From: Lytechinus pictus
Taxonomy: Eukaryota
Length of the DNA stretch: 64,000 nucleotides
NCBI RefSeq assembly: GCF_037042905.1
Contig: NC_087245.1
Span: 28,026,001-28,090,000, forward strand
Direction: 5' to 3'
The notes under the pieces were generated by a model, which did no database searches, had not been told where the DNA came from, and was given only the letters and a program-made list of their open reading frames with translations. Positions 4,342-55,748 of the stretch are shown here, piece by piece. The translations under genes were made by a program, and so were the position numbers. Each line of letters begins with the position of its first letter. Position 1 is the first letter of the stretch.

Positions 4342-7300
4342 ATGCATATCAGCAATTGTGGAAGAGAAACAGATCGCGTTGCACGTTTGGCTGTGCCATT
4401 TCCATCTCTCAGTCTGCAAACTCTTCACATCCGTGACAAAGGAAAAGTCATGGTCATATGTACTCTGAACAATGATGCAACATGCATTAGTGTTGGTCAT
4501 GTCATCGGAGACAGAACTGGTAGTATTGAAATAGCAAATGGTGCTTCATTATTTCTTGGTGTTTGTGGATCCTCTGGCTGTGAATATGAAGAACAAACTG
4601 AGATGGATCTTGCAGTAAACGTTATTGTTCAATATGGGGCTTACATTAAGATACCAAGCTATCTTACATTGAGAGGTGTGACCTTTGACATCTGTGGCGC
4701 AGTAGATGGTGTCCAAGATGGAAGAGTTGACATTCGGAGGGATGGTGCCTTTCTAGCAAGTTATCCTGCAAGGACTGGGCCACAAAACTCAGATGTTAGT
4801 GAGCTCGGCATTCTCAGAATAAATAATGTACATGTGTATCAAGATGGCAGATTGGATGTGTCTGATAGGTGTCCATACAACGTAAAACTCATTCTTGACT
4901 TTGCTACATTTGAAACTCTCTATGGGTCACAGTTTAACCCAGGATCATTTGAGTTGATTACAGCAACGCCATGGACAGAGCCTGTTGGAGATCCTTTAGA
5001 TGATGTTCTTTGTATGACTGATGGAAACCTAGTCTTGCTGTCTGGTCAGACCTGCTCCCTGCCTGCTGGCAGCTATGACTATCATTCCATTATGATTCAT
5101 GGTGGAGCTGTCCTCAAGATCCTAGGAAATGAAACTGGTGATAATATCACTGTGATTTCAGTCGTAGACCTTCATATCAATCCTGGAGGTCTGATTGATG
5201 GGAAAGGAGCAGGTTTGAGATTTGTTGGAGACACGCCATCACCAGAAGGGGGTAGCTATGGGGGTCATGGTGGCAATACAGAACATCCTCCATTTGGAAG
5301 TGCCATCGATCCACTGGATTATGGTTCTTATGGCTCTGGAGGTAGAGGAGGTGGGCAGCTGAAGCTTGTTATTGCGAGATGTGCAGTTATCAACGGGGAT
5401 ATCAGCATGGATGGTGGTGATTCGACTTTGCAGAACCAAGGTGCTGGAAGTGGTGGTAGTATTCTCATTCAAACACCTTGTCTTGTGGGTTATGGTACCA
5501 TTTCAAGCCGAGGAGGAAATGCATTAGCAAACTCTGGAGGTGGTGGAGGGGGAGGAGGAAGGATCTCTGTCCATTTCACAGATGATGGCAACAACTTCAT
5601 GGGTTCCTTTGAAGTTGATGGTGGACACGGTTCAGGCTCAAGTGGTACCATCTACCAGCAATCATATGATGGAGAAAGATATCTCATCTTAGCTGGGTTA
5701 ACAGATACCCCTACACCAATAACGTCAGACACGTTGAATAACATAGATCTGGTTGATATTCTGAAGGTAACAGAAGGATATCAAGTGGCATTAGACCTGA
5801 ATATTACCATAGGACAACTGGGAGGTGATTTGAGTGGTCATGTACTGCTGCCTGGTCATTCAACCATGCAATTAGATTCTGTTGAGTTTGATCACCTTGG
5901 AGCACAGTGCAGTTTTGAAATTACCGAACATGCCAGACTCATCCTTCCGCCATCAATTTTGATGCCAGGGACAGTGAATTTGGAAGGCCTGCTAGAAACA
6001 GAAGATTTCATCCTTGGGGAAGGGGCATCAGCTACTGTATCAGGTACTCTCATGGCAATATCTGTCAGATTACAAAGGAACTCATATCTCACTAGCTACG
6101 AGAATGCTACATTTGGTAGGATGGCGATACCTGGAACCATGGACATTGAAAGCCTTATCATTGACGTCAATGCCCATCTTGATCTTAGTAAAAGCTACCA
6201 AATACATGCATCAGACTTCCAAATGCATGAGTCATCAGAACTGAGTGTGAATTCAGATCGTAAGATGTTTTCCATCATCTGCGGAGATGCCTACATAGCA
6301 AGAGATGCCCAAATATCTGCTGACGCTGGTGGTCTTGGTGATGGCCCAGGAAGCCCTTCAGACCACAGATCTGGTGCAAGCCATGGCGGCGAAGGTGGTG
6401 TGTATGCAGGAATAGCAGGTGTAACCTATGGTTCTAGCACTGTTGCTTCCACGCCAGGTTGTGGAGTCAAATATGGTTCTTCAGAAGTTCGAGGAGGAGG
6501 AACAATATCTTTTGAAGTTGAATCAGATCTGATATTGGAAGGGATGCTTTCTGCAAATGGACAAGACTCTTCAGGAACTATTGGTAGTGGCTCTGGAGGA
6601 AGTATAAACATCCAGGTAAATGGTGTCTTTGAGGGTCATGGTACAATCAGATCTAATGGAGGGACAGCAAGAGGATCATCAACATCGGGTGGTGGAGGGG
6701 GTCGCATCTCTCTTTCATCAAGTATCAGTCACTTTTATGGTATAATTGAAGCTCATGGAGGTGGCGGACATTCCAATGGTGCAGCTGGTACAGTTTATGC
6801 CACAACCACTATAGGTAACTCTGGACAAAGCTCCTTGACTGTGGATAATGGTGGTATGTTAACTGTTAGTAGTACTGTATTTAATTCAAATGAGACAGAT
6901 ATTACTTTTAATGATGTTGTGTTGAGGAAATATGGAAAACTCAGATTTAACAGTTCATCACATTCCACAATCACAATTAACAATCTGCATGGAGACAATA
7001 CAGGATTACTTCAGGTTATTGATAACCAAAAACTGTTCCTTGCCAGAGATCAAGCAGTTGCAACATTTTACTACATAACATGTGCTCTTGAGGTTATGGA
7101 AAGTGCAGAGATATACCTTCCACCAAACATTTACATCTCAGAAAATATGTTTACAGAAACCTCATTTAAACTTTCCGGTCAGTTAACTGATGTAGCAAAC
7201 ATTGTTATTGGATCCAGTGCATCTATGGTTATCAGTGTCACAGCCCATTCTGCAATACTTCTGGATCGTAATGAGCTAATTATCAATCCACCAGGATCTT

Positions 7301-8359
7301 TCTCAGCTACCTCAATCCAAGTTCATGGAAACGGCCTGTTACAATTTGAGAATTCTACAGAATTATTTATCAATCTGGAATTGCTGAGTAGTTTGGAAGT
7401 CAGATACGGTGGTAAAGTGGAAAGTGGATGGCTTGAAATCAATACCCCTTCTGTTGTTGTGGAGTATGGGGGAATGATATCAAGTTCTGGTAGAGGCTTT
7501 GGACCAGGTGAAGGGCCATGCCCGGGTCAGAGTGTCTCTGGGGGTGGTTCCGGCGCTTGTCATGGTGGATCTGGTGGTTTTGCATCCAGTGGTGCAACAA
7601 CTCTTCAAAGGACAACAGGTAGTCTGTATGGCACAAGGGACTTTGGAAGTGGGGGCGGAAGTAGCGATACTGGAGCCGGTGGAGTTGGTGGTGGAGTGAT
7701 TTCTATTTCATCAGAGACTATAAGGATTGATGGAACTATTAATGCTGATGGCCAGAGTGGAAACAGGGCAGGTGGTGGAGGAAGTGGTGGTGCTATCCAC
7801 ATCATGACAGAACATTTCTCAGGATCAGGTGTTCTTAGAGCAACTGGTGGGAATGGTGGGGAAATAGCTGGTGGGGGAGGAGGAGGGGGTCGCATCGCTG
7901 CAATCCTTTCTTCTGCTAGTAAATTCAAAGGTACCTATGTTACCCATGGTGGAAGTGCCCGTGACGGCAACCAAGGAGGCTCTTCAGGCACTGCTTTGCA
8001 ACAAACTCAGATAGGAATCACAACATCTAATGAACTCTATATCAGCAATGAGGGTGCTGATTCCATTTCACCCCTTGTTACCCTGATAAACGAGACACAG
8101 AATGAACCCTTTATATTTTCCAAGTTGACACTTCTCAGTAAAGTTCGCCTGGAACTTGAGGGCGAGAATATTGAAGTCGTGATTGAGAAACTGGAGAGTG
8201 ATTCATCCTGCCAAATTCAAGTTCATGACACAATGGTACTAAGCGTGGAGAACGAGCAAGAGAGAGGTGTCTTTCATTGTAGCTTTTTGGTGGATCCTGA
8301 AGGAGAAATCAGACTACCCTCAAGTGTTGCCTTCCAGGGTGCAAGCAATCAGATATCTG
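4342..8359 (+). CDS. Exon 1 in window (internal exon): Gly-rich repeats 1-3
   Basis: Acceptor ttccccttttag ends at 4341; donor G|gtaaga at 8360; 4018-nt open frame with three GGGGGRI motifs. Confidence 0.9.
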
Positions 8360-8663
8360 GTAAGAATGATATTGTAGAATTGTAGAATATTGTTGAATCC
8401 TTCTAATATGCACTTTTCATATTTTAAAAAAAACTTACACCCTGCCAAATTGTATTTGAATTCAGTTGGAAGGATTGTTTTCAGGAAAATGAAAAATATG
8501 AACAAATTGGTCTTTGAGAACTCACCGATTTTTTTCATACCTGTACATGCACTATTTTCATACCTGTACATGCACTATTTTCATAGCTACACATATGTAA
8601 TCATGAATTCAAACATGGTATCCATTATCATCTTGTTTTATACTTTGTCTTTCTCTGATGCAG

Positions 8664-8995
8664 GTACTTTAACCAACATTTTTGAGCTTGTAGTTGGTGC
8701 CCACCAGTTTCTGTCACTTTCCTCTGAGGCTCGTACTGCAGTGTACGTCGGCGGAGGCTACACTTTTATCTCCCCTCGTGGAGTGTACAGCTTGGCATCC
8801 ATCGTTATCCAGGAGCATGCTACTCTTTCTCTGTCTGGGAGGAGTGCAAACATGTCTGTAGGAAGACTTCAGGTGGACTATGGAGGAAGTCTCTCCATAC
8901 CTGAATTGTACCTGGAGGGTAACAACGTCATAGTGAATCCTGGAGGTTCTATTGATCTGACTGGAGGCAGTTTAGAAGGGCCAGGTCAGGGCATG
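8664..8995 (+). CDS. Exon 2
   Basis: Acceptor tgcag|GT ACT (phase 1, GTLTNIFELVVG); donor ATG|gtaggt (phase 0) matches the next exon. Confidence 0.85.
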
Positions 8996-9666
8996 GTAGG
9001 TAAACCCTTTGATAAAGTTGCTCATATAGATGTGGGGTTAAGAAATCCGCCTTTGTCTTAAAAGAAACTTTGCAGATCTACTTGGAATTTTGAGGGTCAC
9101 TTCTTATTTTACTATAATGGGGATTCATATTGTATGTCTGAAGATTTGATAAGATACTTACATCTACATACATGTACTACTTCTAGCAATTACCCTTTCA
9201 GGATTAACTTTCAAACAAAAAGTCCATGGCAACCAGTCTACATGCCTGCATTAACACCTGTAGTAATTTTGGCTCACAGTCATAGATTTTTTTTAAACAT
9301 CTCTTTGTTGAAAGAAAGACTACTCATCTTTGATATGAGAAACTATCAGCAACATTGACCTTGAGCCCAAAATAACAGAAGTATTTTTATGGCAGGCATA
9401 TCGATTAGATGCTATAGACTTCTACATGAAAACAAGTGTCTTTCACTGCACTTGTAGGGTGATTAGGATTTAACCCTACACAGTAAATTGCTTGGACTCT
9501 ATACTTACATACATTTGAGCATTTCTAAGATAATTGTTTGCATGTCAATTGATGCATGTTGCAATATACAATGTACATGTAAAGACACTGTACCTTTCTC
9601 GTGCTGGGTAATCATGGTCCATTCATACTATATGCTTATTAATATCTTACTCTGTCTTCCAAATAG

Positions 9667-9859
9667 GGTGGAACTGGCGGAGGTCATGGAGGTTACGGGG
9701 GATCACCCCAGGGGGAGAGCATGCTGGGAGGAGCTGCGTATGGTGATGTCATGAAACCTGACAAAGGGGGTAGCAGGGGAGGAAATGGAACCGATGGATA
9801 TGGTGGAGCTGGAGGTGGATTCTTGTCTGTTACCCTTACAGGTGTCGCAACCATAAATG
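9667..9859 (+). CDS. Exon 3
   Basis: aatag|GGTGGGHGGYGG...YGDVMKP...TIN G|gtgagt. Confidence 0.88.
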
Positions 9860-10215
9860 GTGAGTTAATTATATTCTGCAGAGTTGATGTCCATTTAGTA
9901 AATCACCGTCCATTCCCGTGTTTGCCTCTTTTTTTAACTACTGCCCAATTTGAAAAAACGTTGAGATTTTAATGATAATTTGATAAAATATTCACCATTT
10001 ATGTATATTCAATCTCCACTTGACAAATTCATCAGGCCTTGATCATCATAGCTTTTCATGTGAACTAGAAAACCCAAACAAATCATTTCTGATACATGTA
10101 GGTCTTGTATATAAGGAGTCAGACATACATGTGTACTTTGCGGTATTACCCTCAGATTGCATTCTTTACAAATTTACCCAAATTTATCCAAAGTTTTATT
10201 ATTGTTTTTTAACAG

Positions 10216-10396
10216 GCATGATCATAGTTGATGGGCTGCCAGGGACAGGATCAAGCGGAGGAGGAAGTGGAGGTGGTATTATCTTAGATGTTCAAGACCT
10301 GAGTGGCCATGGCTCTATTTTGGCTCGAGGAGGAAACGGGGCTGGGACTGGTGGTGGAGGTTCAGGTGGAAGGATTGCTATTCATTCTCAAAACAG
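10216..10396 (+). CDS. Exon 4
   Basis: aacag|(G)MIIVDG...GGSGGRIAIHSQN AG|gtaagc (phase 2). Confidence 0.9.
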
Positions 10397-10703
10397 GTAA
10401 GCTCATAAAAACTCACTAACATTGTTCCTTGTTCAGACAGGTTGAGAAAAGTACATGTAGATTGGAAATCTGCCTGGTTATGCCACTCTGGAAGACAACT
10501 TTGATTTTAGTTCAAACGTGATCATACATTGTTGTCTCAACTAATTATTCCAGCTATTTGGAGATTACTAACTGCTGCTACTTGCGCGAACAGGCTGCCA
10601 ATGTACACCATCTCCATATTTAATGACATTCGTATTGAATATACCAAAATCTGGCTCAAGATCAATGCTTGAAATATGCCTTTTAATACTCTTGTCTCTG
10701 CAG

Positions 10704-10939
10704 TTTAAGCTATGCAGGATCCTATGAAACCAGAGGAGGTGGAAGCAACATCCCGAGTCCCGAGACCTACATAGGCGCAGCTGGAACTGTATATTTAGCA
10801 GATAAACTGAGTGGTATTCCAAGACACAGGATGATCATTGATGGATCTCAAAGAAGCAGCATCCCTCAGCAGGCTTTCACTATTCTGAGATCTGATCAGG
10901 GCATTCGAGATTTTGCTTTGGATTCACTAGACATTCGAG
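10704..10939 (+). CDS. Exon 5 (absent from the ORF track)
   Basis: ctgcag|T then LSYAGSYETRGG...GAAGTVYLAD...MIIDG...FALDSLDIR G|gtaaaa; supplies the GTVY segment present in every other repeat. Confidence 0.88.
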
Positions 10940-11454
10940 GTAAAATCCCTAATATACATTGCATGCCATGCCTCTAGGTTGCCTGAAGGATTTTGATATT
11001 GATTTATGTAAAATAAAATGTTTACACATGTAGCAAAGCGACTTTTGCGCCTAGTGTCGCCAGTAAGGTGCCTAGTGGCATGCAGTGGCTTAAACTGAAT
11101 GCCAACTGGCACGTGAAGATGCGTAACGGCACCAAAAATTGAACTTGGAGTGACAAAAATTTTTAAACCATGAGGATAAGTAATGAAATCCTATTGCTAG
11201 ATTCCTATGAGAAAGACATTACTCTGACATTTGACCAGTTGCCTAGGAGTCATCACATTCTTTTCACCTGCATGTATTGTAAGACATAATGTAGGTCTCA
11301 CAATTGTGAATCCAGGTTCAGAAGACATGCCTTCGTGTGAGAGGAATGAACATTCAAAAGGTGTCAAATTTGCCCATAACCTTGATTTTTCAAAGGAAAA
11401 TGTTCGTATTGAATGTATCTTTTTGCTCTGCTTTTATTTTTTTATTTTGTGCAG

Positions 11455-13332
11455 GACATGTATTCTTAGAGCTTGGTCACCCAGATTCATCTTTGAACAT
11501 TGGAACAATGTCTGGTGACAGGACAGGTACCCTGGTAGTTCGGGATCAACAATTACTGGAGGTAGATACGTTGATACCAGCCAATACATCATCTTTGACC
11601 CAGTGTAACTTTGAAGTTGGAAGAGAAGGCATCTTGACATTCCCTGGGTTGCTCTCCATTGATCAGACAACCCTGGTTGTAGCTGGAATGCTTGCTGTAG
11701 AACATGTGGCTGTAGAGGAAAATGGCAGGCTGACGTTTCTTGAAGGAGCCACCATTGTGAGCAGAAATGAGAGCAGCTTTGTACCACTTTCAGCGACAGG
11801 GGAATTCTACTTCTCATCTTTAACACTGAAACAGGGTTCAACTTTTGATCCTGCTGGAGGATTAGTTATAAGAGGTGGACTGTTCCATTTGAAGATAGGT
11901 GTTGTTTTGGATTTGGACTATCTCGAGGTCAGGACCAATGAACTCATAGTTGAAGAAGGAGCCATATTAAGTACCAGTGGTAGGAGCATGGTCAATCAAA
12001 TTCATAATATGGATGGAAGCTGTAGAGGTGGTGGCCATGGTGGTCCAGGGGGTATCGGCGATGGTCAACATCCTGCTGAGGCTATGCCATCATTTGGTAC
12101 AATATATGAGCCCTCATTGTATGGAACACGAGGAGAGGGCACTCAAGGTGGATATGGAGGTTCAGCAATTACTGTAAGTAGTGACAACATCAGGATCGAT
12201 GGTGTCCTAGAGGCTAATGGACATGACTCCGTTCATGGAGGTGGGAGTGGTGGGAGTGTGTGGGTAATTGCTCGACGTGATCTTAGTGGTAATGGTCTTA
12301 TCTCAGCCTCCGGGGGTTCCTCATCGTCACCCAGCTGTGGTAGTGGTGGAGGTGGTAGAATAGCCATACACATATTACCAAGGGCATCATACCTCTATCA
12401 TGGAACCTACAATGCTGCTGGAGGAAGTGGTAGTGGTGGATATGGTGGTCCTGGATCTATCTACTTCAAGCGGTACAAAGAGGAAGATTACACAGATGAA
12501 CTTGTGATTGACAACAGCAATGGTCAATCTCTCCTGTACTTCACCTTGAATGAAACCTGGACTGAAGGTCATCTTGACATTTTAGAACTGAACAACCATG
12601 CTCTCTTTCATCTTCCTGAAGATGGTCAGGTCAGAGAACTTGATTTAAGGAAGGTAGAAGGAGATGGCACAGGTCTTCTGCATGTCCATTCCAATCACAC
12701 TGTACTCTATGAACAGACTTTCGGTGAAAATCAGACTCACACAACTGTCAATACTAACCTTATCATTGACGATGGTGGAACAATTATTTTCTCGACTCTG
12801 ACATTCATATCAGGTAAAGGATCCGTACATACAGCTCTTGACCTTGAAGGCAGGATGCTAGGGGTACACAACCTTATCCTCACCGAAGGTCGTACCATGA
12901 AAGTGTCAAACACTGCTGTTGCGAGTACAGACATTGACAACACCACAACTCCAGGTCAGTTTACATTCGGTAGTGTTGAGCTTCATGCAGGCAGCCGATG
13001 GGAGTTTGAAACCAACATGGGATCTGTTCTTAACATGGGCTCTCTTGACGTCAAATTCGGTGCAACGATATCAGCTGACTATGTCATCGCAGAAGTGAAC
13101 TCTGTGGATGTTGAGATAGGATCTGTCATTGCTTGCTCAGGCACTGAACGACGGGAATCCTCATCAGCAGAAAGAGAGGGCATTCCATCAAGTGCAGATG
13201 CAGGTTCTGGCCATGGATCTTTCGGTGGGACTGGTCCTGATGGTGTTACTGGTGGTGGTTCCCCTTATGGATCTCTCTACTGGCCGACAAGAAGAGGTAG
13301 TGATGCCTATACTGGTGGACGAAAGGGAGGAG
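11455..13332 (+). CDS. Exon 6
   Basis: gtgcag|(G)HVFLELG...GDRTG...GRKGG G|gtaaga. Confidence 0.9.
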
Positions 13333-13471
13333 GTAAGAAATTTTAAATTGTCTATTTCTAAATGTATGTGCTTCAACTGTTCTTTCTACATAGAATACTG
13401 TTTTGGCACTCAAAATAATGCAGTCATTGTGCTTTTGATAAAATTAATATCTCTTAAAACTCCTAGTTCCT

Positions 13472-13663
13472 CAATTATAATTCCCACGTTACATATTTCG
13501 ATCTGCTTTGATTATTTTCTCTGTAGTTGACTTGTTAATACAGTATTTCTCTCAAATGACAAAGAATATAAGGATATGAATCAATTATGATTCCCACGTT
13601 ACATATTTCGATCTGCTTTGATTATTTCCTCTCAAATGACAAAGAATATAAGGATATGAATCA
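13472..13663. repeat. Local tandem duplication (80-110 bp units) in intron
   Basis: attcccacgttacatatttcgatctgctttgattattt and ctctcaaatgacaaagaatataaggatatgaatca each occur twice in tandem; the second copy lacks a ~30-bp spacer. Confidence 0.85.
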
Positions 13664-13736
13664 TGCTATATGATATGACTGTATGTTATTATTATTGTTG
13701 TGCTTTGTAATTTTCTGTTCATATTCACAACTATAG

Positions 13737-13850
13737 GCACAGTACACATCATTTCCAATGAGCTGATTATTGATGGTACTATCTCAGCCAGTGGCGCTGA
13801 GGGAGGGGCTAGCGGAGGAAGTGTCCTTGTTCAGGCATATCTTTTTATAG
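13737..13850 (+). CDS. Exon 7 (absent from the ORF track)
   Basis: ctatag|(G)TVHIISNELIIDGTISASGAEGGASGGSVLVQAYLFI G|gtgagc. Confidence 0.88.
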
Positions 13851-14307
13851 GTGAGCAAACATTACAAATATTTCATTAGCATTAAAGGCGCTTTTTATGT
13901 TTCTTAATGAAAGTCTAGACCACTTTTATTTAGACTGTAATCTGGAATCCCTTTCAATGCCATTTACCTTCTTACACTGTACCTCTCTTTCCTATATAAA
14001 ATAAAGATTGGGATCGGGCAAAGTGATATGCTGGATATGGCAACAGCATGACTTTTGTTTAGGTTTCAAAGATTTGTAAAATCTGTAAAATCTTTTTGAA
14101 TCAAATACATGTACCTTGGAAATAGTCACCTTGAACTCAGATGAAAAATGTCTCTTTGTGCTATTTTAGGGACTATACAGAGACACAATTTTCTTTTTTT
14201 CTTGTTTGTGGTATGATATCATGAAATTTGAGATTGTACTCATTCTCCATTTTGTATTTACACAAAATATGTATACATACACTTGCATGTATTTGTTGTT
14301 TTTATAG

Positions 14308-16322
14308 GGAGTGGTGAAATAGACGTGAGTGGAGGATCTGGGACTGGTGGTGGGGGAGGTGGCTCTGGGGGTCGAATTGCCGTCTACACCAACAGCACTA
14401 ATCAGTTCTATGGTTTCTACAATGCTCTTGGCGGAAGTGCTTCAAATGACCTACTGCAACCAAGGGGTGGTGGGAGTGGCACTGTGTATCTTTGGCAACC
14501 ACAGAATAGTTCTCCTTTCCAAAGTCTTCTCATTGACAACCAAAACAGACCACATTCTCAATTCGTGATGCTAGATGAAGGCAGAACGTATTATGAGTTT
14601 GATGAAATCCACCTTCCGAGGCAGTCCTCTCTTCACATCAATGAGTCGGTATCTGCAGAATTTGTGATTCACAAAGTTGTGGGAGATCGAACCGGCCTCC
14701 TCCAGTCTCATGCAGGACATATGTTTTTTGTGGAGGTTGTAGAGTCTATACCAACTATTGGGAAGACACCCGTCAACTTCATCATTGACAGCCAATCAGA
14801 AATGGTATTTGCTCCTACCCTCCATGTCCTGGGCCTTGGTGTACCCACAAGTAGTGGACGTTTAGCATCCTTAGACATGAAGGGGAGATTAACAAATGTG
14901 ATGGACCTAATTGCTAACCAGCACTCTCATATACAATATGGACAAGATGCACACACTGCAAAGCTGGAAAATGGAGAATATGTAGAGATCACTGAGCCTC
15001 TAAACTTTACCTTTGGTGCTATTCAGCTTCTGACCGATTCATCAATGTACTTTACAGCAGACTTAGGCATGCGATTCCTTGTGGCCGATCTCCATGCAAG
15101 ATATAATTCCTTCATATCTGCCGAACATATTGAGCTTGTTGCCTCCTCTGTCAACATTGAAAAGGGGGCCATCTTAACTTGTAGTGCAGGAGACAGGCCT
15201 GAAGATCTGATGTCTTCTAGTTTGGGTCAAGGTGCTCCTGCATCCTCTAATGGTGCTGGTGGCGCTGGACATGCAAATCTTGGCGGGAATGCTTGCACAG
15301 AATCTTCAGAAACTCTAGAGAGTGGAGGTGCATTCTATGGAAGTATTTACCAGGGGGAAGAGCGTGGTAGCGATGGCGGTGATGGAACAAATAGTGAGGC
15401 TGGTGGAAAAGGTGGTGGATACATGAAGATTGTGGTTGGAGATACATTTAGGCTTGATGGTGAGTTGAGAGTTGATGGCTCTAGTGGTGCCTCTGGGAGC
15501 GGAGGTGGGAGTGGAGGGTCTGTACATCTCTCTGTGACAGAGTTTGATGGTCTAGGAAGGATAACAGCTCATGGTGGGAGCGGTAGTCAATCATCTGGTG
15601 GAGGTTCTGGTGGTATCATCACTGTGTACACCACATCTGTTAACAACTATCAAGGCCTGTATGAGGCACATGGCGGTGAAGGCAACCCATCTGATGAATC
15701 GCAGAGATGCCATGGTAGTCCTGGATCTGTATTCATTCACCATCTCTTTGAAGGTTACCCACGTACAACTCTTCTCATAGATAATCAACAAAGGTCTTGG
15801 GTACATTACTTCACACTCAGAGAAGACAATATGAGGCATTACTACTTTGACGAAATTCATCTAAATAACAAAGCATCACTGCAACTTTTGGATAACGGAA
15901 TTCCGCAGACGCTGTCCGCAACCGAGCTTCTTGGCGACCAAACTGGTTTAATACATATACATGGTAACCACACCCACACATATGATGTCATTGAGGGAGA
16001 GATAACAAGCATGAAGCTTCCGGTGAATCTTAGGATTGACCCTGAAGGTGTAGCAGAGCTGGCCACCACAGTGGACGTTGTTGGCATGGGTAGTCCAGCC
16101 TTTGAATGGAACGGACAACTTCTTGGTGTAAGGCACCTGAGGATATCACCAGGCAGGGAAGTACTCATAGCTGCCAATGCTCACACTGCTCTAAAGGTAG
16201 ATGGCCAGTACATTCAATTGGACAATCCTGGTACGTTCCACTTCTCAAGTCTGGAGTTTGGATCACAGACGTCCATCAGTTTTCCACCGCCACTTGGAGT
16301 TACCTTTACTGTTGGATTTTTG
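14308..16322 (+). CDS. Exon 8
   Basis: ttatag|(G)SGEIDVSGG...FTVGFL|gtaagt (phase 0). Confidence 0.9.
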
Positions 16323-16373
16323 GTAAGTGTATTCTCTCTCCAGCTTATGTTGTTGTTTTTTATTTTGATTATA

Positions 16374-16660
16374 CAGTGCGTCCCACAATAAACGAAACTG
16401 AGATTTATCAATGATTTTTCATAACTTAATCACAAATACAATAGACAAATGACCTACCATTGTAAAGCTTAGAATCTCCTCTTTCATCTGAAATTACTTA
16501 GATTATTTTCTTGTACGCATGAGTGAGCAAAACCAATTTGAAGAGGGGATACCAAAAAGTCATTTGGCGGGCTATATCTGGGTTTCAAAAAGAAAACCAC
16601 ATTCTCAAAAAGTTCAATATCTGCTCTTTGATTTGATACCTCAATTGCAGAAAATGGTCC
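16374..16660. mobile_element. Fragment of a non-autonomous Tc1/mariner-like element (one terminus only)
   Basis: Begins TA|CAGTGCGTCCCACAATAAACGAAAC, a TA plus CAGTG terminus; no partner end found; right boundary approximate. Confidence 0.4.
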
Positions 16661-33100: not shown

Positions 33101-36100
33101 GATGTGCCTCCTGCTGCAATGTTAAGTGAAGGAGGAACTGTAGTGTACTACTTTGATGAGATGGAACTCACTGGTTCCTCAAGACTCCTAATCTACCATC
33201 CTGATAATGCAACTGAAGTCAACATAACTGTGCACCTGTTCATTGGTGATCGTACTGGGCAGCTGCATCTGCGAACGAACCAGACTGTTTTTGTTGAGGT
33301 GGAAGAGACAGAAACAAACAAGACAGATGCCCCCTGCAGTTACATCATTGATCCAGGTGCAGTTCTTATTCTGCCTACGGAATTCCATGTCCATGGAACA
33401 AACAGCCTAATTAAAGGACTCATCGCAGGAGTACATCATCTCTATGTTGAAGACCAGGCCAGGATGACATTTGAATCAACAGGAAATACTGCATTGTGGA
33501 TGCAGAGACAGTTTGTCAGCATAACCCCATTGGGAAATTTCGCATTTTCGACTATTACAGTCAAGGAAGGAGGTACAGTGGGGTTCATGAGGATCACTTC
33601 TCCTTTGAGGTTAGAATCAAGTGAAATGAGGGTGAAGTACGGAGGGCAGCTGTTCATGAATGAAGCACATCTGTTTTCATCATATGCCTGGGTAGAGAGT
33701 ACTGGAACATTTCATCTGGATGGCGGGGGACATGATGCAGAGTCTGGACCAGGAGCTGGTTTTAGTTCGGGTGGTGTTGGATATGGTGCAGCACATGGCG
33801 GAGAAGGTGGAGGAGTAGATGTGTCCCTGGTTTCCCAGCCGTATGGCTCTATTTATTTACCATTTCAATCTGGGAGTGGTGGAGGTAGTGGTCAAGGAGC
33901 CGGAGGTAAAGGTGGAGGCCTTCTGCGATGGACCATTGGACATTATCTTGAATTGAATGGGTTGCTCTCCCTCAAAGGACTTGATGGTGGTCAACACGCA
34001 GGTGGTGGAAGTGGGGGCAGTGGTATCATCGAAAGCACAAACATGACTGGCCATGGTGAGATCAATGTGCAGGGAGGCAGTGGGTCTGGTCAAGGGTGTG
34101 GTGGAGCTGGTGGCAGGGTAGCCATACTCTGTAGATTGAGGTATACATATGGTGGAAAATTCAATGATTTTGGAGGTAGTGGGAGCTCAAACCAGAGGGG
34201 AGCAGCGGCAGGTACCATCTACAAGGAAGAGAATATGCGTCCATTGGAATATCGTAAGAGCAAGTATATCAAATCCTTGAACACCACCTTGCTTGTTGTG
34301 GACCATACCTATCTCCACATTGATAATAATAACATTGATGTCCCAGTTTCTACAATGATTCGAGAGGACAATACAATAAGTTATGAATTAGATGAACTTG
34401 AAGTTACTGGCCTTGCACGGTCAACTGTGTATCACCCCAGTAATGAGACAGAAGTCCAAGTCATTGCACATCGATTTATTGGAGATAGAACAGGGCAGAT
34501 GCATCTGAGACAAAACCAGACCTTATTTGCTGAGGTTGTGGAATCTGAAACAAATCATACAGAAGCACCTTGTAGCTTCAGAATCGATGATGGGGCAGAG
34601 ATAGTGCTCCCTTCCGAAGTTCATTTGCATGGAATACGAACTGAAATCCATGGTCGAGTGACTGGCATCCATGATCTATACATTGAAGCTGATGGATATG
34701 TAATAGTGACATCTACTACACAAACTGCTCTCCTTGAAAGGCAAGAGTATGTTTACATATCTTCCAATGGCAACTTCTCAATCCCTCGCCTGTACATTAA
34801 ACAAGGTGGCAACATAGACTTTCATCGTGTCAAGGAAGAAATTCTGGTTGATGTTTCATTTCTGGAAATAAAATTTGGAGGCCTCTTTGAGATGAACAGT
34901 GGTTCCGTTTACTCTGACGTTGCAGATCTGGAGAGTGAAGGTGTTCTAAGTCTGGATGGAAGAGGGTATAGCGGTAGCGAAGGACCTGGAGCTGGAGTAA
35001 CCATTAGCAGTAGGGGTTCCGGTGCCCACCATGGTGGAATTGGTGGAAATCCAACCATAGGTGATAATGGATCATATGGGTCTGTTTTCAATCCCACTGA
35101 GCTAGGAAGTGGGGGTGGCAGTAGCAGCCATGGGTCAGGCGGATCTGGGGGAGGTTCTCTCCAATGGGTTGTGGGTAAGGTTATACACATCAATGGTCTG
35201 GTCTCAGCAGATGGTTCTTCTGGAGCGACTGATGCAGGAGGTGGTAGTGGAGGCAGCATATTGATTCAAGCACTGAACATGACGGGCCATGGTGAGGTTA
35301 GGACCAGTGGGGGTAATGGCTCAAGATATGGGGCTGGTGGAGCTGGTGGGAGAATGGCAATACACATTGATTACCAGAACAACTTTGATGGGTTATATAA
35401 CTGCAGAGGAGGGTTTTATGGAGGGAACTCTGATCCTGATCACTCAGGAAACGGAGCAGCTGGAACTATTTATAAATACGAATCAAGAAGAGGTCCTCAA
35501 TACAGAGATTTAAAATATAATGACCCAGCTCTCAATATCTCCACAATAAAACCAGAACACAGCAAATTGACAGTAGATAATGGGATAATAGACGTTGATC
35601 ATCCAGCAGTTGTAATGGAAGAAGGTCGTTGGTTCTATGAATTCGATGAAGTCCAAGTGGAAGGCTATTCCTATGTCCACTTTTATCACCCAGAAACAGC
35701 CCTTGATATCACTGTAATCATACATGAGTTGACTGGCAATAAGAAAGGTCTGATACGTGTCCAGAGTAGGCAGCGAGTGTTTGTCAACATTGTAGAGTCA
35801 ACGCATACCTACCTTGATGCTCCTTGTGGATTCCATGTGGATTGGGGTGGTGACCTTGTCCTTCCTACAAATGTCATCATCCTGACTGAGAGAATTCTAG
35901 TCGAAGGACAACTCTCTGGAGTGGAGGAACTAACCGTTGAGAGAGATGGAGAACTTCAGTTTGGCGGAAGAGCCTTTACCTCTCTCCTTCCACCCAGCTC
36001 AGAATGGTACATCGATGTGCCCTATGACACTTCCAGAAATGGCACTATCGATATTGGCACCATTCTTGTCAACAATCTGGGTATTATTCGGCTTACATCT

Positions 36101-36296
36101 TCTACTGCTGAACCAGTAATAGATGCTGGTGTCCTGAGGGTGAAGAAAGGTGGATCTGTAGTTGCTGAATGTGAGAAGATCAGTGTCAATGCTGGGGAGC
36201 TGGTGATCGAGTATGTAGGCATCCTGTCCTCTGTAGGGTCTGGGATGGGTCCTGGTGCTGGAAGTAGCTATGGCGGTGCAGGACATGGCTCACCAG
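30108..36296 (+). CDS. Exon 14 (6189 nt): about five Gly-rich repeats
   Basis: ctgcag|(G)VAYGSYITP..., in frame with the 1971-aa ORF starting at 30392; donor G|gtaaga. Confidence 0.92.
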
Positions 36297-36797
36297 GTAA
36301 GATATGAATAGATCTTCATAACTTTGATATGGTGATAAACCAGAAAAAAAACCAAATTCATTGCCATAGATACTATACTATGAGACAATGTTGCACCATG
36401 ACTTTTCTATCTTTATGTGTCAAATTGCAGGCAACTTGCATCACTTATTTAATGGAGGCTACAATTGATGGCAACAATATCTAAATTGATGATTATTGAT
36501 ATAATTTCTCTTGCTCACATCATATAAGTTTAGTTCTAAATTTAGTTTCATAGGCTGCATGCTTGTCACCCATTATGTATGTAATGCATATTCTGTAAGA
36601 AATAGAATCAGGATCATGATTCCAAAGCTTTCATACACAATTCTCTGTTGATCCTCAATCCATTTCTAACAATTTAGATAGAACTTTTTACAGAATGATG
36701 AAATGTAAATCACATATAAAATGTTATCAACTGCTCTATTATGATATCACATCGATTTATATATTCATATATGTGATAAATTCATTTCTGTTTCAAG

Positions 36798-36913
36798 GTG
36801 GTAATAATGGTGGCGGATCAGCATATGGTGATTTGTTCAACCCCAGTTTGTCCGGGAGTAGGGGAAGTGGGGTGAGCAAAGGAGGTGGCGTTATCCTTCT
36901 AAACATTGGTGGG
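36798..36913 (+). CDS. Exon 15
   Basis: ttcaag|(G)GNNGGGSAYGDLFNP...ILLNIGG|gtaagt. Confidence 0.85.
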
Positions 36914-37043
36914 GTAAGTCTTAAAACTTTTACTTCTGATGTTTGAAAGAGACAAAGAAGATCCCAGGATATTATATACCTGTTTATTGAAGTAGATTTC
37001 TTTTTGGGGCAAATATATCATTCGCACTCGGTATTTTCAAATT

Positions 37044-37325
37044 CTGGGCCCCATCTTACAGAGAGTTACAATTGATCCGATCAATCGTACATGTAACTCT
37101 ATGGAAATCCATCAATGTCATAATTTTTTCTACAGGAAATTTGCACAATGTCTTTTGTAAGCAAAGAGAAGGACAAAACATTTTCAAGAAAACAATGAAT
37201 GCATGAATATATATCATGGTTAGAAAATATTTTTAACAAACATGCATAAAAAATGTTGATTTTGCTGGCTTTCCATAGTTGCGATTGATCGGATCAATCA
37301 CAACTCTTTGTAAGACGGGGCCCAG
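37044..37325. mobile_element. ~280-bp MITE with ~55-bp TIRs (possibly PIF/Harbinger-related)
   Basis: ctgggccccatcttacagagagtt...gatccgatcaatcg pairs with cgattgatcggatcaatc...aactctttgtaagacggggcccag; ATT on both flanks. Confidence 0.8.
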
Positions 37326-37982
37326 ATTCTGTAGTTAATATCTCCTCCAACAATTCTACAACTCAGAAACTATCTCATCATCATCATAATAGCTTGACAT
37401 ATTAGTCTGCCTCCTCCCCATCTTGCAATGGATATATGCCTCAATTTAGGCTTGCTGCATGTTTTGTCTTCCAACTGTATGTCCAAACCTGTTTCTCTTC
37501 CATCTTTTAATGGTTTCCCGAAGATTCTCACTCTCGTAAAAATCATGTTGCTCATCATCTAGCCATATTACTAAGATTTCAAGCATCTTTTCTTCTGACT
37601 TTCTGATTATCCAAGTTTAAGATCCATACAATGCTACACTCCAAACCAAACATTTGACAAGTTATGTCCTTAAATTTTTATTTTACCTAGCTGATAAAGA
37701 TTTCTTAGGTAACATCATTTTCATTTTTTGTTCATGCTCTCATTATAATTTTATCATCATTCTGATTATTATTATGATTATTATTGTTATCATTGTTATT
37801 ATTACTATTATTATTGATATTAGTATTATTAATATTGTGATTTAAAAAGTATGTACATTTTTCAATCAAAACCAGCAGTTCTTAAGCCAGTCAGTGGTAA
37901 CCAAACAGGATTAAATGAATCAACATACGGAAAAGTTCGCACTATAGATACAAACAAAAAAGAAGAACACCATCAAATACTA

Positions 37983-39190
37983 TTTTTATGTCCCCGCAGA
38001 CAAAATCCGGAGGGTCATTAAGCGTTGCCCCTGTCCGTTTGTCCGTCCATCCGTCCCCCCGCTTGGTTTCCGCGCAATAACTAAAAAATATTAAATGGAT
38101 CTAAAAAAAAATTAATGTGTAGGTAGATGACACCAAAATACAGGCTAAGTTCCAATTCGGAGTCCGCAGATCAAAGGTCCAGCTCATTAAATATGCGAGT
38201 TGGTTTCCATGCAATAACTCAACAAATATCTAATGGATTTTAAAAATTTTGGATGTGTTGGTAGATGACACCAAAATACAGGCTAAGTCTGAATTTGGAG
38301 TCTTCAGGTCAAAGGTCACAGCTCATTGAATATGCAAGTTGGTTTCCCCATGATAACTTACATGTATGAAATATTCATTATGAAATATTCAACAGATTAA
38401 AAAAAATTTGGTGTGTAGATAGATGACACCAAAATACAGGTTACGTTTGAATTCGGAATCCGCAGGTCAAAGGTCACAGCTCATAAAATATGCGAGTTGG
38501 TTTCCGTGCAATAACTCAACAAATATTTAATGGATTTTAACAATTTTGGGTTTGTAGTTAGATGACACCAAAATACAGGCTTAGATCGAATTTGGATTCT
38601 GCAGGTCAAAGGTCACAGCTCATTAAATATGCGAGTTGGTTTCCGCATGATAACTTACAGTATGAAATATTCAACAGATTTTTAAAAATTTTGGTGTGTA
38701 GGTAAATAACACCAAAATATAGGTGAAGTTCAAATTTGGAGTCCGCAGGTCAAAGGTCACAGCTCATTAAATATGCAAGATGGTTTCCACATGATAACTT
38801 ATGAAATATTCAACAGATTTAAAAAAAAATTTGGTGTGTAGGTAGATGACACCAAAATACAGGCTAAGTTCGAATTCGGAGTCCGCAGGTCAAAGTTCAC
38901 AGCTCATTAAATATGCGAGTTGGTTTCCACAAGATAACTTGTGAAATATTCGACAGATTAAAAAAATTGGGGTATGTAGGTACATGTAGATGACACCAAA
39001 ATACAGGCTAAGTTCGAATTCGGAGTACACAGGTCAAAGGTCACAACTCATTATATATGCAAGTTAATTCAAAGTTCTAAATTTGTTCATTATATATATG
39101 CATATTGGTTTCTGCACAATATTAAGTTCAATCATATTGAATGAATTTCTGATCGCGTTAAGCGGGGGCATCTGTGTCCTTTGGACACGT
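37983..39190 (+). mobile_element. Helentron-associated (HINE/DINE-1-like) non-autonomous element with an internal array of seven ~140-bp units
   Basis: T-run start; subTIRs atgtccccgc (37988) and gcgggggcat (39162); gtcc microsatellite near 38030; 3' hairpin gtgtcc-ttt-ggacac (39174-39188). Units anchored by gatgacaccaaaata (one variant) at 38126, 38264, 38422, 38561, 38705, 38845 and 38989. Confidence 0.75.
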
Positions 39191-39462
39191 CAAATTACAA
39201 GTTCTAAAATATATGTTAGAAGTAATTAGTAACTTTATAATAAACAAAAAAGCAAGATGGTTAACGTATAGTGATATTGTTCAAATGCATATGAAAGTAA
39301 AAGGGTGTAATCCTAGATAATATCACATGATGTGAAGAATTATGAATATGGAATTTTTTTTTTGTGGAAAACTGCATGTGTGGCAACTGATTCAAAGAAT
39401 GAAACTACATTGTTTATTATGATTGAAATATCATTGAATTGTATCGAATCTTTGTTTTGTAG

Positions 39463-39613
39463 AAAATGATCTGTGATGGCATTATATCTGTTAATGCCCA
39501 TGATCCTACTGCTACTTATAAAAGTGGGGGAAGTGGTGGAAGTCTGGTAATCAAGACTAATACCTTCAGAGGTCATGGAGAGGTCGTTGCAAATGGTGCA
39601 AGTGGACACAGTG
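39463..39613 (+). CDS. Exon 16
   Basis: ttgtag|KMICDGIISVNA...GGSGGSLVI...GHS G|gtgaga. Confidence 0.9.
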
Positions 39614-40066
39614 GTGAGAATGTTTTTTTAAGCCAACTGAATAGATTTATTATGATATTAGTAGAAACCAATTGCAACTTGGAACTTTGAAACTAGTGTG
39701 ATACTTTCCTTGCCATTACTCAAATATCATGGAAACCTGAACAGTATCAATTGAATTTTGGAAATTTTTGTCTCTCTTAGTATCGTTATATCAATTTAAG
39801 GCAATATTTTAAAATTCATTAGCTTAACCCTCTTTTTACTTTTATAAACATATGTAATTCTCTCAGGATGAAATATACTTTTTGCATAATGATTTGTGGA
39901 TTGAGAGTAGATTTTTGATTTATTATTTTCTTTTGAAGTGTTTATTAAAGATGGAAAGTGTACATGTAGGCCTATATATGATTATTAGTTTGCTATATTG
40001 ATGTTATGTATTATTATATATTTCAACATTAAATAAAACTTGATGGCCATCTATTTTTTTTTGTAG

Positions 40067-40362
40067 GATCATCAACCCGATATGGGGGTGGAAGCGGAGG
40101 ACGTATGGCTTTATACATCAATGAGCCTTACAGGTTTCAAGGCACTGTTCAAGCCCTTGGTGGTGCAGGGTCACATTCTAGAGTTTCTGGAGGGCCAGGT
40201 ACTGTCTACAGGCAGTATGAGCAGGATGGCCACCTATGGAAGGAGCTGGTGTTAGATGGCAATGGTCACTCACTCAGTGCAAATACAGTGACACTTGCTG
40301 GAGCTGTTCACTATGAGTTTGACACTGTTATTCTCCTACGAGGGGCAAAGCTCAACATAAAG
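40067..40362 (+). CDS. Exon 17
   Basis: ttgtag|(G)SSTRYGGGSGGRMALY...KLNIK|gtaggc. Confidence 0.9.
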
Positions 40363-40627
40363 GTAGGCTGCTATTGGGTGTTGTCATTCAGGTACTTAAG
40401 AACTGTGGATTTGCCAAGAGAAAAGTTTGAGAAATCTCCTTTCTTGAGGAATTTTGTAGACTAATGTATCTAAGTTGTTTTCAGCCTTCATTCATGGAGT
40501 CATGCAATTTAGATAACAAAATAAATATAATGATAATAACAATGTAACTTCTGAAGGTTTTCATGGCAAAGAAGTAGAGTGTAGTGGTTTTCACAGTACA
40601 CCATGTATCTCTTGTGGGCAAATGATA

Positions 40628-40997
40628 CCCTAGTCAAAATAAGATAGTTAAAAAAAATAGAAGAAAAAATAGCCAAAAAATAAAACATGAAATATATTTT
40701 TATGCTATTTTTCCCCCACACAAAATAGTGTAAAAATATGTAAAAAATATAAAAGAAATACAATAAAAATAGTTTAAAAAATAGTATGCGCTTTAAAAAC
40801 AGAAATAAAATAGCCTATTTTCTCTATTTCACCTGTAAAAATAACAAAAAAATAGTCTGAGTAAAAAATAGGGAAAAGATAGACTATTTTCTTTCTATTT
40901 CATTTGTAAAAATAGTTTAAAAAATAGTCCCGTTTTACTAAAAATAGAGAGAAAATAAGGAAAAAATATATTTTCTCGCAGCAAAAAACTACTAGGG
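40628..40997. mobile_element. A-rich 370-bp MITE-like insertion
   Basis: Ends CCCTAGT and ACTAGGG, ATA on both flanks, many internal aaaaatag sub-repeats. Confidence 0.5.
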
Positions 40998-41293
40998 ATA
41001 ACAATAATGATAAGAAGAATGAATATTCAATCTTTAACTGCAAGTTATTTTTGTTCTACTTTGTGTCAGATGTATCTGGATGCTTGTAACATTTTAGATC
41101 AGAAGACTGTATATGTCTAGGCCTGATTCAGTAGTTTTTATCATGGAAAGCAGATGTATTGTTTCTTTTATCAAATACATTGAAGAATGGATGATATCAG
41201 AGAAAAAAGAGGGATTGTATCATGTAGTAGTATGTCTGTATAGAGAATATTGAGTGCAGGAAATTTATTGATTGTAATGTTTCTTTTTTTCAG

Positions 41294-44200
41294 GGGTCAG
41301 AAGGGTCAATAGGCTATGGAACTATTCATTCCCTAAAGGGCGATGGGACAGGAGAATTGATTGTAAAAGATCATACCGAGATACAGCTTTCTCCTGCTGT
41401 CAGCAGATCAAGACCGACCGAAGCCATATCCATACAACCGAGAGGAATCTTCATTGTGCCAAGTAACCTTGAAGTTCCTGATACTCTCTCAATACAGGGT
41501 GGTATATTTGGATTACAAGAGCTTGTTGTCTCTGGAACCATTAACATCTACAACTCTGGCTATTCAGTTTGCTCAAACTGCTCAATGACCTCAACAGAGC
41601 TGGGTCAATACCGTCTTACCAGTATCCATGTGCGTAATACTGGAACCTTTCATGTCAGGAGCAACACCTACAGCACTCAGGATGAAAGCGGGGTTCGTCT
41701 GTTTCTTACTGGGATTCTGGAAGTGGAATACGGAGGAGTTGCACGTGTAGAGAAAAGTATTGCAGGATATACCAAATGCCTTAAAGTAGAACTGTCCGGA
41801 AGTGTTGATGGATCAGGGTTAGGCTACCTGCAAGAAAGTGGCCCTGGGCGAGGTTACAGATGCGGCAATGCTGGCAGTGGAGCTGGGCATGGCGGTATGG
41901 GGAATAGGATAGGTTGTGTTCATGGCAGTGAGACATATGGTGAAGCTTGCCTGCCAGTCAGTTCAGGAAGTGGAGGTGGTTCAGGATGCACTGGCGGTCA
42001 TGTCGGTGGAAGTGGTGGAGCTGCTGTCAAATTCATCTCAATTCTGTCTCATGTAGAAGGTGATATAAGGATGGATGGAAATAATGGAGCATATACATCT
42101 GGAGGTGGCAGTGGGGGGTCTATCTGGCTTGATAGTGATGTCTTTGAAGGATGGGGTGTTCTGTCGGCTTCAGGCGGGAGTGGATCTTCAGCACGGTGTT
42201 ATAACCTTGACCATATAAGATATGGTGGTGGAGGAGGAGGGGGCCGTATAAGGACATTTTCCCCAGGCCTATATCCCATTTTGTCTGGAAGACGTGTGGT
42301 GGATGGACCAAGTGCTGGCTCTGGAACGCTCTGTTCAGATCCTTTGCTTTGCAATTGCCCAATCTCTTCTCTGTGCAGTAATCATGGTATATGGAACACA
42401 ACAACAGAAGAATGTACCTGTGGTGATGGATATGTTGGTACCTGGTGCCACGTACCATGTTCATCAAGCTTGACCTGCAATGGGCATGGTCTATGTACCG
42501 ATTCTGGTGACTGCATCTGTGAAGTGGGATATGTTGGATATCGATGTGAGCATGAATGCACCAGAAATGACACCTGTAACGGACATGGTGAATGCTCAGT
42601 ATTTGGGGAATGCCTATGTCAGGATTGTTTCCATGGGGAAGATTGCTCACAAGAATGCAGTGATGCTGGTACATGTTCTCTCCTCGGTACTTGTGATTGC
42701 AATAGCTGCCATGTTGGGGAATACTGTGAAATTGTGTGCTCGGACCATGGATCATGTGATAATGGGGTTTGTTCCTGTGAAGTGGGTTGGAGCGGTGAGC
42801 ACTGCTCCATTGCTGGATGTCCAGGTGACGATAATTGTTGTGGACATGGAGTTTGCAATTCTGCAATTCATCAGTGTTATTGCAATCCTGGATGGTGGGG
42901 TAATGACTGCTGCTCTCCAGACTGCCCAGGAGATCCAGATTGCAACAGTAATGGAAACTGCACAGCTCTGAGTAATCCCCCACAATGTACATGCTTCCAT
43001 GGATGGATGGGTCTCGCATGTGAACATGAATGCCTCCATGGGAGTGTGGTTGTTCTAAATGGAGAATACTCATGCGAGTGTGATCCCTGCTGGGTAGGAT
43101 CAGGATGCAACGTCTTGTGTTCAGGTTTTGGCTTGTGCGACGATACAACAGAAATATGTCAATGTGATCCTCTAACTGGATGGAGAGGTGATCTCTGTGA
43201 GGTCCCTGGGTGCCCTGGAATTGGAGAAGATTGCTCTGGTCATGGTGATTGCAATAGTGCAGTTCATGAATGTACCTGTGATCCTGGCTGGTCTGGTGTT
43301 GGCTGCCACATACCTGACTGCCCTGGTGAACCAGACTGCTATGAACGAGGCTTCTGCAATGCAACATTCGATCCGCCTGAATGCAGAAACTGCTCCACTG
43401 GTTTTATGGGACGTGATTGCAATGAACGTTGCATCAATGGTCAGCAGCAACCAATGGACAGTGGGATATGTGTTTGTGAGCCAGGATGGGTAGGCACGAG
43501 TTGTGATTCAGAGTGCTCTGGTCATGGTTCAATCATTGATGGAGAGTGTGTATGTGATGAAGTCTGGCGCGGAATATTCTGTGACTACCCTGGTTGTCCG
43601 GGTGATGGTATTGATTGTAGCGGCCATGGAGAATGTGACAGCTCACAACATGTCTGTACTTGTGATCCTGGCTGGATTGGAGATGGCTGCAACATTGCTG
43701 ATTGCCCTGGAGAACCAGACTGCAATGGTAAAGGTACCTGCAACAGCACATTTGATCCACCAAGGTGTCTTGACTGTCAGCCAGGCTTTATGGGACTTTC
43801 CTGTGAAGAGCCCTGTGTCCACGGAACTCAAGATCCTCCAAACAGTGGCATTTGCCAGTGTGAATCACTCTATACTGGTGTTGGATGTGATGCAGAATGT
43901 TCTTTACATGGAATAATTGTTGGTGAGCAATGCCTGTGTGATCCTACATGGTGGGGAACTCTTTGCGATGAACCAGGCTGTTACGGCAATGGCTCATCCT
44001 GCACAGATAGGGGTGAATGCAATGCAGCTTCTCATATTTGTAGTTGTGTGAGTGGATACAGAGGAAATGGCTGTGAATTTCTGGACTGTCCTGGAGATCC
44101 TGATTGCTTTGGACGTGGTGAATGCAGTGATAACTTTGAAACACCACGTTGTATTAACTGCCATTGGCCTTACATAGGAAGGGACTGCAACCAACTTTGT

Positions 44201-55697: not shown

Positions 55698-55748
55698 TCT
55701 CTATAATTTATTCATAATGTATCAATTATTGTTTGCCACTCCTTTCAG

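Follow-up and report, generated by a model that had tools for sequence, protein, structure and literature searches.

A 64,000-nucleotide stretch of the Lytechinus pictus genome (contig NC_087245.1, positions 28,026,001 to 28,090,000; herein the window) carries a single spliced gene that encodes, in one reading frame, 15 tandem glycine-rich units of about 400 amino acids (aa), a run of EGF-like domains, and modules of VWD and laminin-G-like (LamG) domains. The units are conserved one by one in other phyla. From these features we infer, with confidence a little above even, a giant extracellular animal protein that serves as a rigid rod, tethered to the membrane, within a coat or adhesive mesh at the cell surface. 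What is new here is a conserved giant protein of holozoans; its building style and the bacterial domain related to its glycine cores were already known.

Gene structure and the 15-unit array

Tracing of donor and acceptor sites yielded one plus-strand gene from 4342 to 64000, with 29 exons and 10,208 codons that contain no stop and are open at both ends (Table 1). GT-AG borders were found at all 28 introns. The window has the character of animal DNA with spliceosomal introns, and the glycine-rich and Cys-rich open stretches were confined to the plus strand in a six-frame reading. A pyrimidine tract and an AG splice acceptor lie directly 5' of the ATG at 4342, which is probably not the true start. 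The model carries 95 N-glycosylation sequons, and no transmembrane stretch was found in its 10,208 aa.

A Pecten gene model (P0296) is colinear with residues 3969 to 8055 at 43% identity, spanning the repeats, the EGF run, and the first VWD domain, and a Ptychodera model aligned to residues 4776 to 6537 at 48%. Because these models align in this way, the repeats, EGF, and VWD parts belong to one protein; the start of the EGF run and the last glycine core share exon 41294-44551. Several separate genes were ruled out by the single frame, the 28 canonical introns, and the Pecten model, and a pseudogene by the uninterrupted codons. A first-pass annotation made from the letters alone had given 4342..42330 as the extent of the repeats. 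They do lie there, but not as a single open reading frame (ORF): 17 introns cut the array, and the frame runs past 42330 to the end of the window. Those introns had been missed, as had the EGF and VWD-LamG parts that the protein carries further downstream.

Sequencing runs from a near relative, whose large exon differs by ~3.6%, were mapped over 25780-37100. Aligned pieces of run X7, which consists of contigs and whose RNA status is a guess, stop no more than 2 bases from five predicted exon edges (26012, 26403, 27411, 28551, and 36294), two of them with 129 and 164 letters that run on. Depth in the intron bin 36364-36741 was 0 in X7 versus 68.5 in the DNA run X1. The X7 pattern is consistent with splicing; no sequencing record carrying the exon is registered as RNA.

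The 15 units range from 381 to 446 aa, in line with the roughly 15 tandem copies of ~400 aa first proposed, with 15-20% Gly and 21-50% pairwise identity (mean 29%). Their glycine cores recur every 381-416 aa in the spliced frame, and the array takes up the first 6,071 residues of the model, so that the ~5,800 aa originally estimated was too low. Units 2-7 each consist of a beta-helix spacer of ~215-230 aa and a glycine core of ~170-185 aa, and units 10-13 are the most alike (40-50% identity). The motif order described at first pass is visible in the unit alignment. Judged by alignment columns, not by a strict motif-by-motif tally, at least 13 of the 15 units retain the main glycine columns, and at least 9 retain those of IDN and FDE. 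The 10 cores held in single exons have 21 invariant columns (20 Gly and 1 Ser), and the cores are 26-34% Gly with a nearly constant length (164-188 aa).

Each half of each unit was scored on a profile of the other 14, with 100 shuffles as control. Non-glycine halves scored 46-215 bits, compared with 7.7 or less for the best of 100 shuffles, and glycine halves 77-140 bits, compared with shuffles below 0, in 15 of 15 units for both. Chance or composition bias was thereby ruled out. The array holds 17.4% Gly, 5.6% Ala, and diverse hydrophobic strands, and its longest run with Gly at every third residue is six triplets; collagen and silk fibroin or spidroin were ruled out on these grounds, as had been expected.

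Table 1. Features of the gene in the window (core, position of the glycine core; adjacent units and exons follow in order)
Feature	Position	Strand	Remarks
Unit 1	4342-5679	+	Core 5545; 446 aa; extra insert ahead of core; starts at splice acceptor
Unit 2	5680-6822	+	Core 6688
Unit 3	6823-8010	+	Core 7876
Unit 4	8011-10797	+	Core 10356
Unit 5	10798-12476	+	Core 12342
Unit 6	12477-14492	+	Core 14358
Unit 7	14493-15734	+	Core 15600
Unit 8	15735-27246	+	Core 27112; broken by 9.5-kb intron
Unit 9	27247-30502	+	Core 30368
Unit 10	30503-31747	+	Core 31613
Unit 11	31748-32989	+	Core 32855
Unit 12	32990-34234	+	Core 34100
Unit 13	34235-35470	+	Core 35336
Unit 14	35471-40221	+	Core 40087
Unit 15	40222-42364	+	Core 42230
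Teneurin-type EGF-like run	42365..51800	+	~1,730 aa, 293 Cys; Pfam EGF_TEN E 6e-65, EGF_Teneurin, EGF_2
Conserved linker domain, two small exons	54605..55878	+	41% to Pecten P0296, 47% to Amphiura P0413
VWD, laminin-G-like, helical Cys-rich, and EGF modules	57178..64000	+	Pfam VWD E 5.5e-30, Laminin_G_3 E 7.8e-08, self-matches
Exons 1-10	4342-8359, 8664-8995, 9667-9859, 10216-10396, 10704-10939, 11455-13332, 13737-13850, 14308-16322, 25831-26011, 26404-26631	+	
Exons 11-20	27050-27411, 28193-28553, 29246-29536, 30108-36296, 36798-36913, 39463-39613, 40067-40362, 41294-44551, 44978-45347, 45983-46169	+	
Exons 21-29	46475-47373, 47890-48063, 48941-49453, 50073-50234, 50664-51053, 51504-51800, 54605-54884, 55749-55878, 57178-64000	+	

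Predicted fold of the units

AlphaFold2 (AF2) was run on two parts of the array. A model of window positions 31178-33688 (837 aa with two cores and their spacers, 91 sequences) reached a predicted local distance difference test score (pLDDT) of 91.2 and a predicted template modeling score (pTM) of 0.84, and a model of one core (32384-33094, 237 aa, 90 sequences) reached 92.3 and 0.86. All five models were confident in both runs. The spacer appears as a series of short strands, and in the core strands alternate with glycine tracts, including a stretch of ~70 residues that has high confidence, no helix, and isolated bridges only. Across the glycine segments pLDDT was 86-98. The units thus very probably fold as a beta-helix with ordered, non-strand glycine segments; disorder is not predicted, and the beta-solenoid first proposed agrees with both models and with their best fold matches, which are beta-helices.

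In VIA comparisons the two-core model matched EtpA (Z 10.7, root mean square deviation [rmsd] 4.9, 290 aligned), HMW1 (Z 10.6), and FHA (Z 9.7). For the core model the top matches, at Z 8.9 and Z 8.5, had rmsd values over 11, and HMW1 aligned to 120 of the 237 residues (Z 8.1, rmsd 2.3); about half of this model is thus without a counterpart among the matches listed. Foldseek against PDB gave no match at E 0.001 or better for either model, and a PDB profile search gave chance Fab matches only. In BFVD, two prasinovirus proteins from Bathycoccus and Ostreococcus viruses matched the core fold (E 1.6e-4 and 3.4e-4, template modeling scores 0.47 and 0.36).

Glycine-rich polyproline II (PPII) bundles have been described for ALK, gp38, and springtail antifreeze proteins (PMC13243192, PMC11364801). 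By analogy, the glycine tracts may form a PPII bundle packed against the last rungs of each unit. Of the polyglycine-II segments originally suggested, the ordered character is borne out by the models, and the PPII geometry is an inference.

Relatives, age, and the ends of the protein

With a single unit as query, 481 proteins matched among 8,000 scored, and 3,426 cluster representatives matched at E 0.001 or better. The full unit occurs in molluscs (Dreissena, Mactra, Pecten, and Potamilus), echinoderms (Patiria and Diadema), hemichordates (Ptychodera and Saccoglossus), and the choanoflagellate Salpingoeca (PTSG_11389 and PTSG_13037). Sets of 4-11 cores with other spacers occur in an ochromonad and in many bacteria (Verrucomicrobiae, Auribacterota, Microbulbifer, Deltaproteobacteria, and others). 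The core was present in 408 of the 422 proteins collected, 181 of which have the animal-type spacer besides. A tblastn search against phages gave no match, and two scans of prokaryote genome contigs, which detect close relatives only, confirmed no relative among 39 and 63 pattern matches. The bacterial and protist relatives suggested at first pass were thus found, and the plant ones amount to a lead: an Atlas score of 0.84 to a Streptophyta cluster, 27% of whose members have DUF8003. The plant glycine-rich DUF8003 proteins have a PANTHER family and Arabidopsis members; AT5G11700 may belong to this glycine-repeat family. AT5G11700 has been described as PELE, a vacuolar protein (bioRxiv 10.1101/2024.12.03.626687).

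A tree was computed from 73 holozoan units, leaving aside 39 bacterial and ochromonad cores as well as short or low-scoring cores, including the fifth-position core of Mactra. In this tree, 14 of the 15 window units each cluster with a unit from a mollusc (support 0.67-1.0), the order of the two sets being the same, and no window unit is sister to another, which rules out recent tandem duplication. Of the nine PTSG_11389 units, four fall with window units 2-5, again in order, and at locus L002 the order is preserved from the match to unit 4 through to the EGF run. Since the units group by position across phyla, the array is older than the split between molluscs and deuterostomes; part of it probably predates animals.

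No Pfam family matched six of the seven repeat-only ORFs, and the seventh gave a spurious AcrF8 match (E 0.02; E 0.71 for AcrF8 on the same ORF in a PDB sequence search). None of the 10 glycine cores matched Pfam. The repeats have no Pfam family and match no solved structure by sequence, and the first-pass view that no family name applies holds to that extent; it overlooked a link to AgmC. Positions ~216-403 of the 412 in NCBIfam NF047640, the N-terminal domain of the myxobacterial adventurous-gliding protein AgmC (AgmC_N), match the glycine core. The profile matched four of 10 window cores weakly (best E 0.0073), and relatives from Mactra and Patiria (E 5e-5 and 3e-4). Among 15 further relatives it matched nine, the strongest being P0176 (E 1e-52, nine stretches). 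That protein in turn matches the window cores (37% identity, probability 99%). The curated cut-off of 275 bits was not reached, and whole exons gave no match or 8.4 bits. By these comparisons the glycine core is homologous to the glycine-rich second half of the AgmC_N profile, making it AgmC-like at a level far below the family cut-off. Among the bacterial relatives, a large set bearing signal peptides (P0114-P0120, P0292, and similar, one of them named as Verrucomicrobiae) has 7-8 cores spaced ~255 aa apart and offers a compact bacterial model of the core.

Downstream of the array, the VWD-LamG modules repeat with a period of ~630 aa in ~3.6 copies and extend past the window edge. Relatives give an impression of both missing ends. 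The Mactra relative P0297 has three cores ahead of the one matching unit 1, and Amphiura P0413 continues for ~1,350 aa beyond the window end; taken together these imply a minimum length of ~12,500 aa. Saccoglossus P0126 and Potamilus P0299 start with a signal-peptide-like hydrophobic stretch, followed by a core and an F5/8 domain, and have ~9-10 cores in all. Units of the signal-peptide-bearing relatives cluster with window unit 1, whose beta half groups there, and with two upstream Mactra units (support 0.87), and Salpingoeca P0302 holds both unit types within one model. These relatives suggest a signal peptide and more upstream units. If joined to such a part, the protein would reach ~18,000 aa, an extension that is hypothetical, since direct links from the signal-peptide-bearing relatives (Saccoglossus, Patiria, Potamilus, and Diadema) to window unit 1 are weak (64-84 bits). 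At the other end, two of eight VWD-LamG relatives examined (P0418 and P0419) end in a hydrophobic helix and a tail, which possibly points to a C-terminal membrane anchor.

Several further observations concern these relatives. The Cys-containing insert of unit 1 (4950-5200) is similar to the first residues past the signal peptide of Saccoglossus P0126, and the first spacing is also longer in P0122, P0124, P0127, and P0128 (426-480 aa); the insert may be a cap at the start of a second rod segment. P0302 (PTSG_13037) has a JmjC domain ahead of its F5/8 domain and cores, possibly a gene-model fusion. P0122, P0038, P0415, and P0417 are all listed with a longest contig of 1,600,744 bases, which suggests that repeat arrays and two VWD-LamG copies share a contig, perhaps as tandem paralogues.

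The noncoding parts of the window hold repeats of their own. In the 9.5-kb intron within unit 8 (16323-25830), short ends in inverted orientation lie near 16792 and 25590, and hairpins are nested at 17072-17328; the intron probably consists of stacked non-autonomous mobile elements. The intron stretch 5' of the first exon (1-3900) is GC-richer and T-skewed with short open frames only, and is likely a mobile-element remnant. A tandem array with a period of ~144 bp and copies ~82% alike lies in an intron at 38102-39065, and a degenerate pyrimidine-rich microsatellite at 53086-53939 is the source of spurious Phe/Leu/Ser-rich frames. Intron segments 27540-27870 and 37046-37089 are high-copy repeats that both DNA and RNA cover very deeply, in either orientation.

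Function and comparison with known systems

In the reading that we find most likely, the protein is secreted by way of an N-terminal signal peptide and held in the membrane by a C-terminal single-pass anchor. The disulfide-rich EGF and VWD-LamG part would form a stalk carrying the stiff beta-helix on top, its 15 units being predicted to stack into one continuous helix, each with one face that bears a glycine bundle. A beta-helix rises 0.48 nm per rung, and with ~13-14 rungs a unit would measure ~6-7 nm and the 15 units ~100 nm. Such a rod could serve as a coat, structural spacer, or adhesive fibril on the apical surface, like PKHD1L1 on stereocilia. The separate conservation of every position makes it probable that the units form specific contacts, with glycans or neighboring rods, instead of being interchangeable spacers.

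Several results weigh against this reading. Both gene ends lie outside the 64-kb window. P0418 and P0419 reach no more than 21-24% identity and could be paralogues that lack the glycine array, and the other six of the eight VWD-LamG relatives end without a membrane helix, probably cut at exon or model ends. Among the rows listed for the mapped runs there was no GT-AG joint, and two raw RNA runs, of each of which a quarter was read, were nearly without exon reads (depth 1.6 or less); expression in the sampled RNA is therefore low or restricted. Fold Z-scores of 8-11 are middling for repeats, and no PPII-bundle structure was among the VIA matches listed, an absence that proves nothing. AF2 can yield confident but unreal beta-solenoids for perfect repeats, according to one report (PMC11795689), though the units here are no more than 21-50% alike. 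Our literature search, outside of which lay most subscription journals and supplements (tube-foot, shell, and mucus proteomes), found nothing on the protein, its locus tags, or AgmC, and no localization or function data for any member.

A protein of the same fold could instead be fully secreted, its VWD modules polymerizing into a mucus, cuticle, or matrix fiber as in gel-forming mucins and VWF, which we regard as possible but on the unlikely side. VWD-driven polymerization is established, the window contains the VWD domain typical of these proteins in at least 3.6 modules, and Amphiura P0413 has ~6 with no membrane helix in 3,784 aa. Against polymerization, VWD and LamG modules take turns here, in contrast to mucin D assemblies, P0418 and P0419 end in a membrane helix and tail, and the VWD exon has no TIL or cystine-knot Pfam match; neither these domains nor a Pro-Thr-Ser (PTS) region was seen in the window, outside of which the C terminus lies.

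It is quite improbable that the protein is mainly a recognition receptor, in which each glycine bundle and beta-helix groove binds a ligand (glycan, microbe, or peptide) like the glycine-rich domain of ALK/LTK and rod length is secondary. The position-by-position conservation of the units, the lectin-like LamG domains, and the F5/8 domains of relatives would suit such a role, as would the binding by PPII bundles described in ALK and phage gp38 (PMC13243192). The invariant core positions, however, are Gly and Ser, as expected of packing rather than ligand binding, the P0418 and P0419 tails have no Pfam signaling domain or recognizable fold, and there was no Pfam match to ALK-type glycine domains. 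Very improbable is a third reading, that separate beta-helix blocks are joined by the glycine segments as flexible elastomeric linkers, whose modeled order is an AF2 artifact: although the high Gly content of the cores, the AF2 solenoid bias (PMC11795689), and the lack of a solved template in PDB sequence and profile searches would allow it, the glycines are invariant at a fixed distance from the beta-strands in cores of nearly constant length, core order is kept in bacteria (as in P0176), and all five AF2 models were confident in both runs.

The tethered rod may be part of something larger. In a version that we hold to be speculative and rather doubtful, the window would be the middle of a polypeptide of ~18,000 residues with some 27 or more beta-helix/polyglycine-II units, derived from a bacterial-type AgmC-like domain before the animal/choanoflagellate split and kept unit by unit since; it would supply the structural fibril so far missing from the glycocalyx or the microvillar filter mesh on collar cells and ciliated epithelia of marine invertebrates and choanoflagellates. 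If the tethered-rod reading holds, invertebrates and choanoflagellates would have in common a surface protein among the largest known, and a pre-animal component would be added to the story of extracellular matrix origins. The protein would be built on a beta-helix like that of bacterial adhesins but with a glycine bundle, a combination for which the searches gave no solved structure. Databases divide the protein into adjacent models labeled "uncharacterized" or "Tenascin-X", which may explain why it was overlooked. The 400-residue unit is a candidate first structure for a very large uncatalogued domain family, to judge by the 3,426 cluster representatives matched.

Among known systems, the best fold matches (Z 8-10.7) are the long parallel beta-helix rods of two-partner secretion (TPS) and autotransporter adhesins (EtpA, HMW1, FHA, Ag43, and pertactin), and short beta-strands stacked as a parallel beta-helix are likewise seen in the predicted models. 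The window protein differs in being animal and in having no Pfam, NCBIfam, or PDB sequence match to these adhesins. About half of the core model, probably made up of the glycine segments, finds no alignment with them. With PPII-bundle domains (ALK/LTK, phage S16 gp38, springtail antifreeze, and PE_PGRS; PMC13243192, PMC11364801) the window units have in common short glycine tracts, which in the model are ordered but neither helix nor strand. Here such tracts are interlaced with the rungs of a beta-helix and recur 15 times; there was no Pfam match to these domains, and ALK, gp38, and springtail antifreeze proteins were not among the fold matches listed. An antifreeze role is unsupported, and the freshwater, soil-type bacterial, and choanoflagellate relatives speak against it.

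Fibrocystin and fibrocystin-L (PKHD1 and PKHD1L1) are also giant single-pass beta-helix surface proteins, the latter a 4,249-aa beta-helix/G8 protein that forms the stereocilia surface coat (PMC6707252), and the resemblance is one of functional analogy only. That description mentions no glycine cores in fibrocystins, and no IPT or G8 match was found by Pfam in the 10 window ORFs scanned; upstream-type units of 3 of 10 relatives have weak G8 matches. With tenascins and teneurins the window protein shares a teneurin-type EGF run, and the UniRef label Tenascin-X on a Patiria relative is a misnomer from this part. In tenascin the EGF domains are followed by FN3 and fibrinogen, neither of which matched in the ORFs scanned, and in teneurin eight EGFs are followed by an NHL propeller and a YD shell, whereas of the teneurin models only the EGF ones match in the window ORFs scanned and VWD-LamG modules follow. 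The closest known relative of the cores, AgmC_N, shares with the window repeats the lack of a solved structure by sequence match. It is one bacterial domain, whereas here at least 15 tandem cores, each with an animal-type beta spacer, are built into an EGF/VWD/LamG protein.

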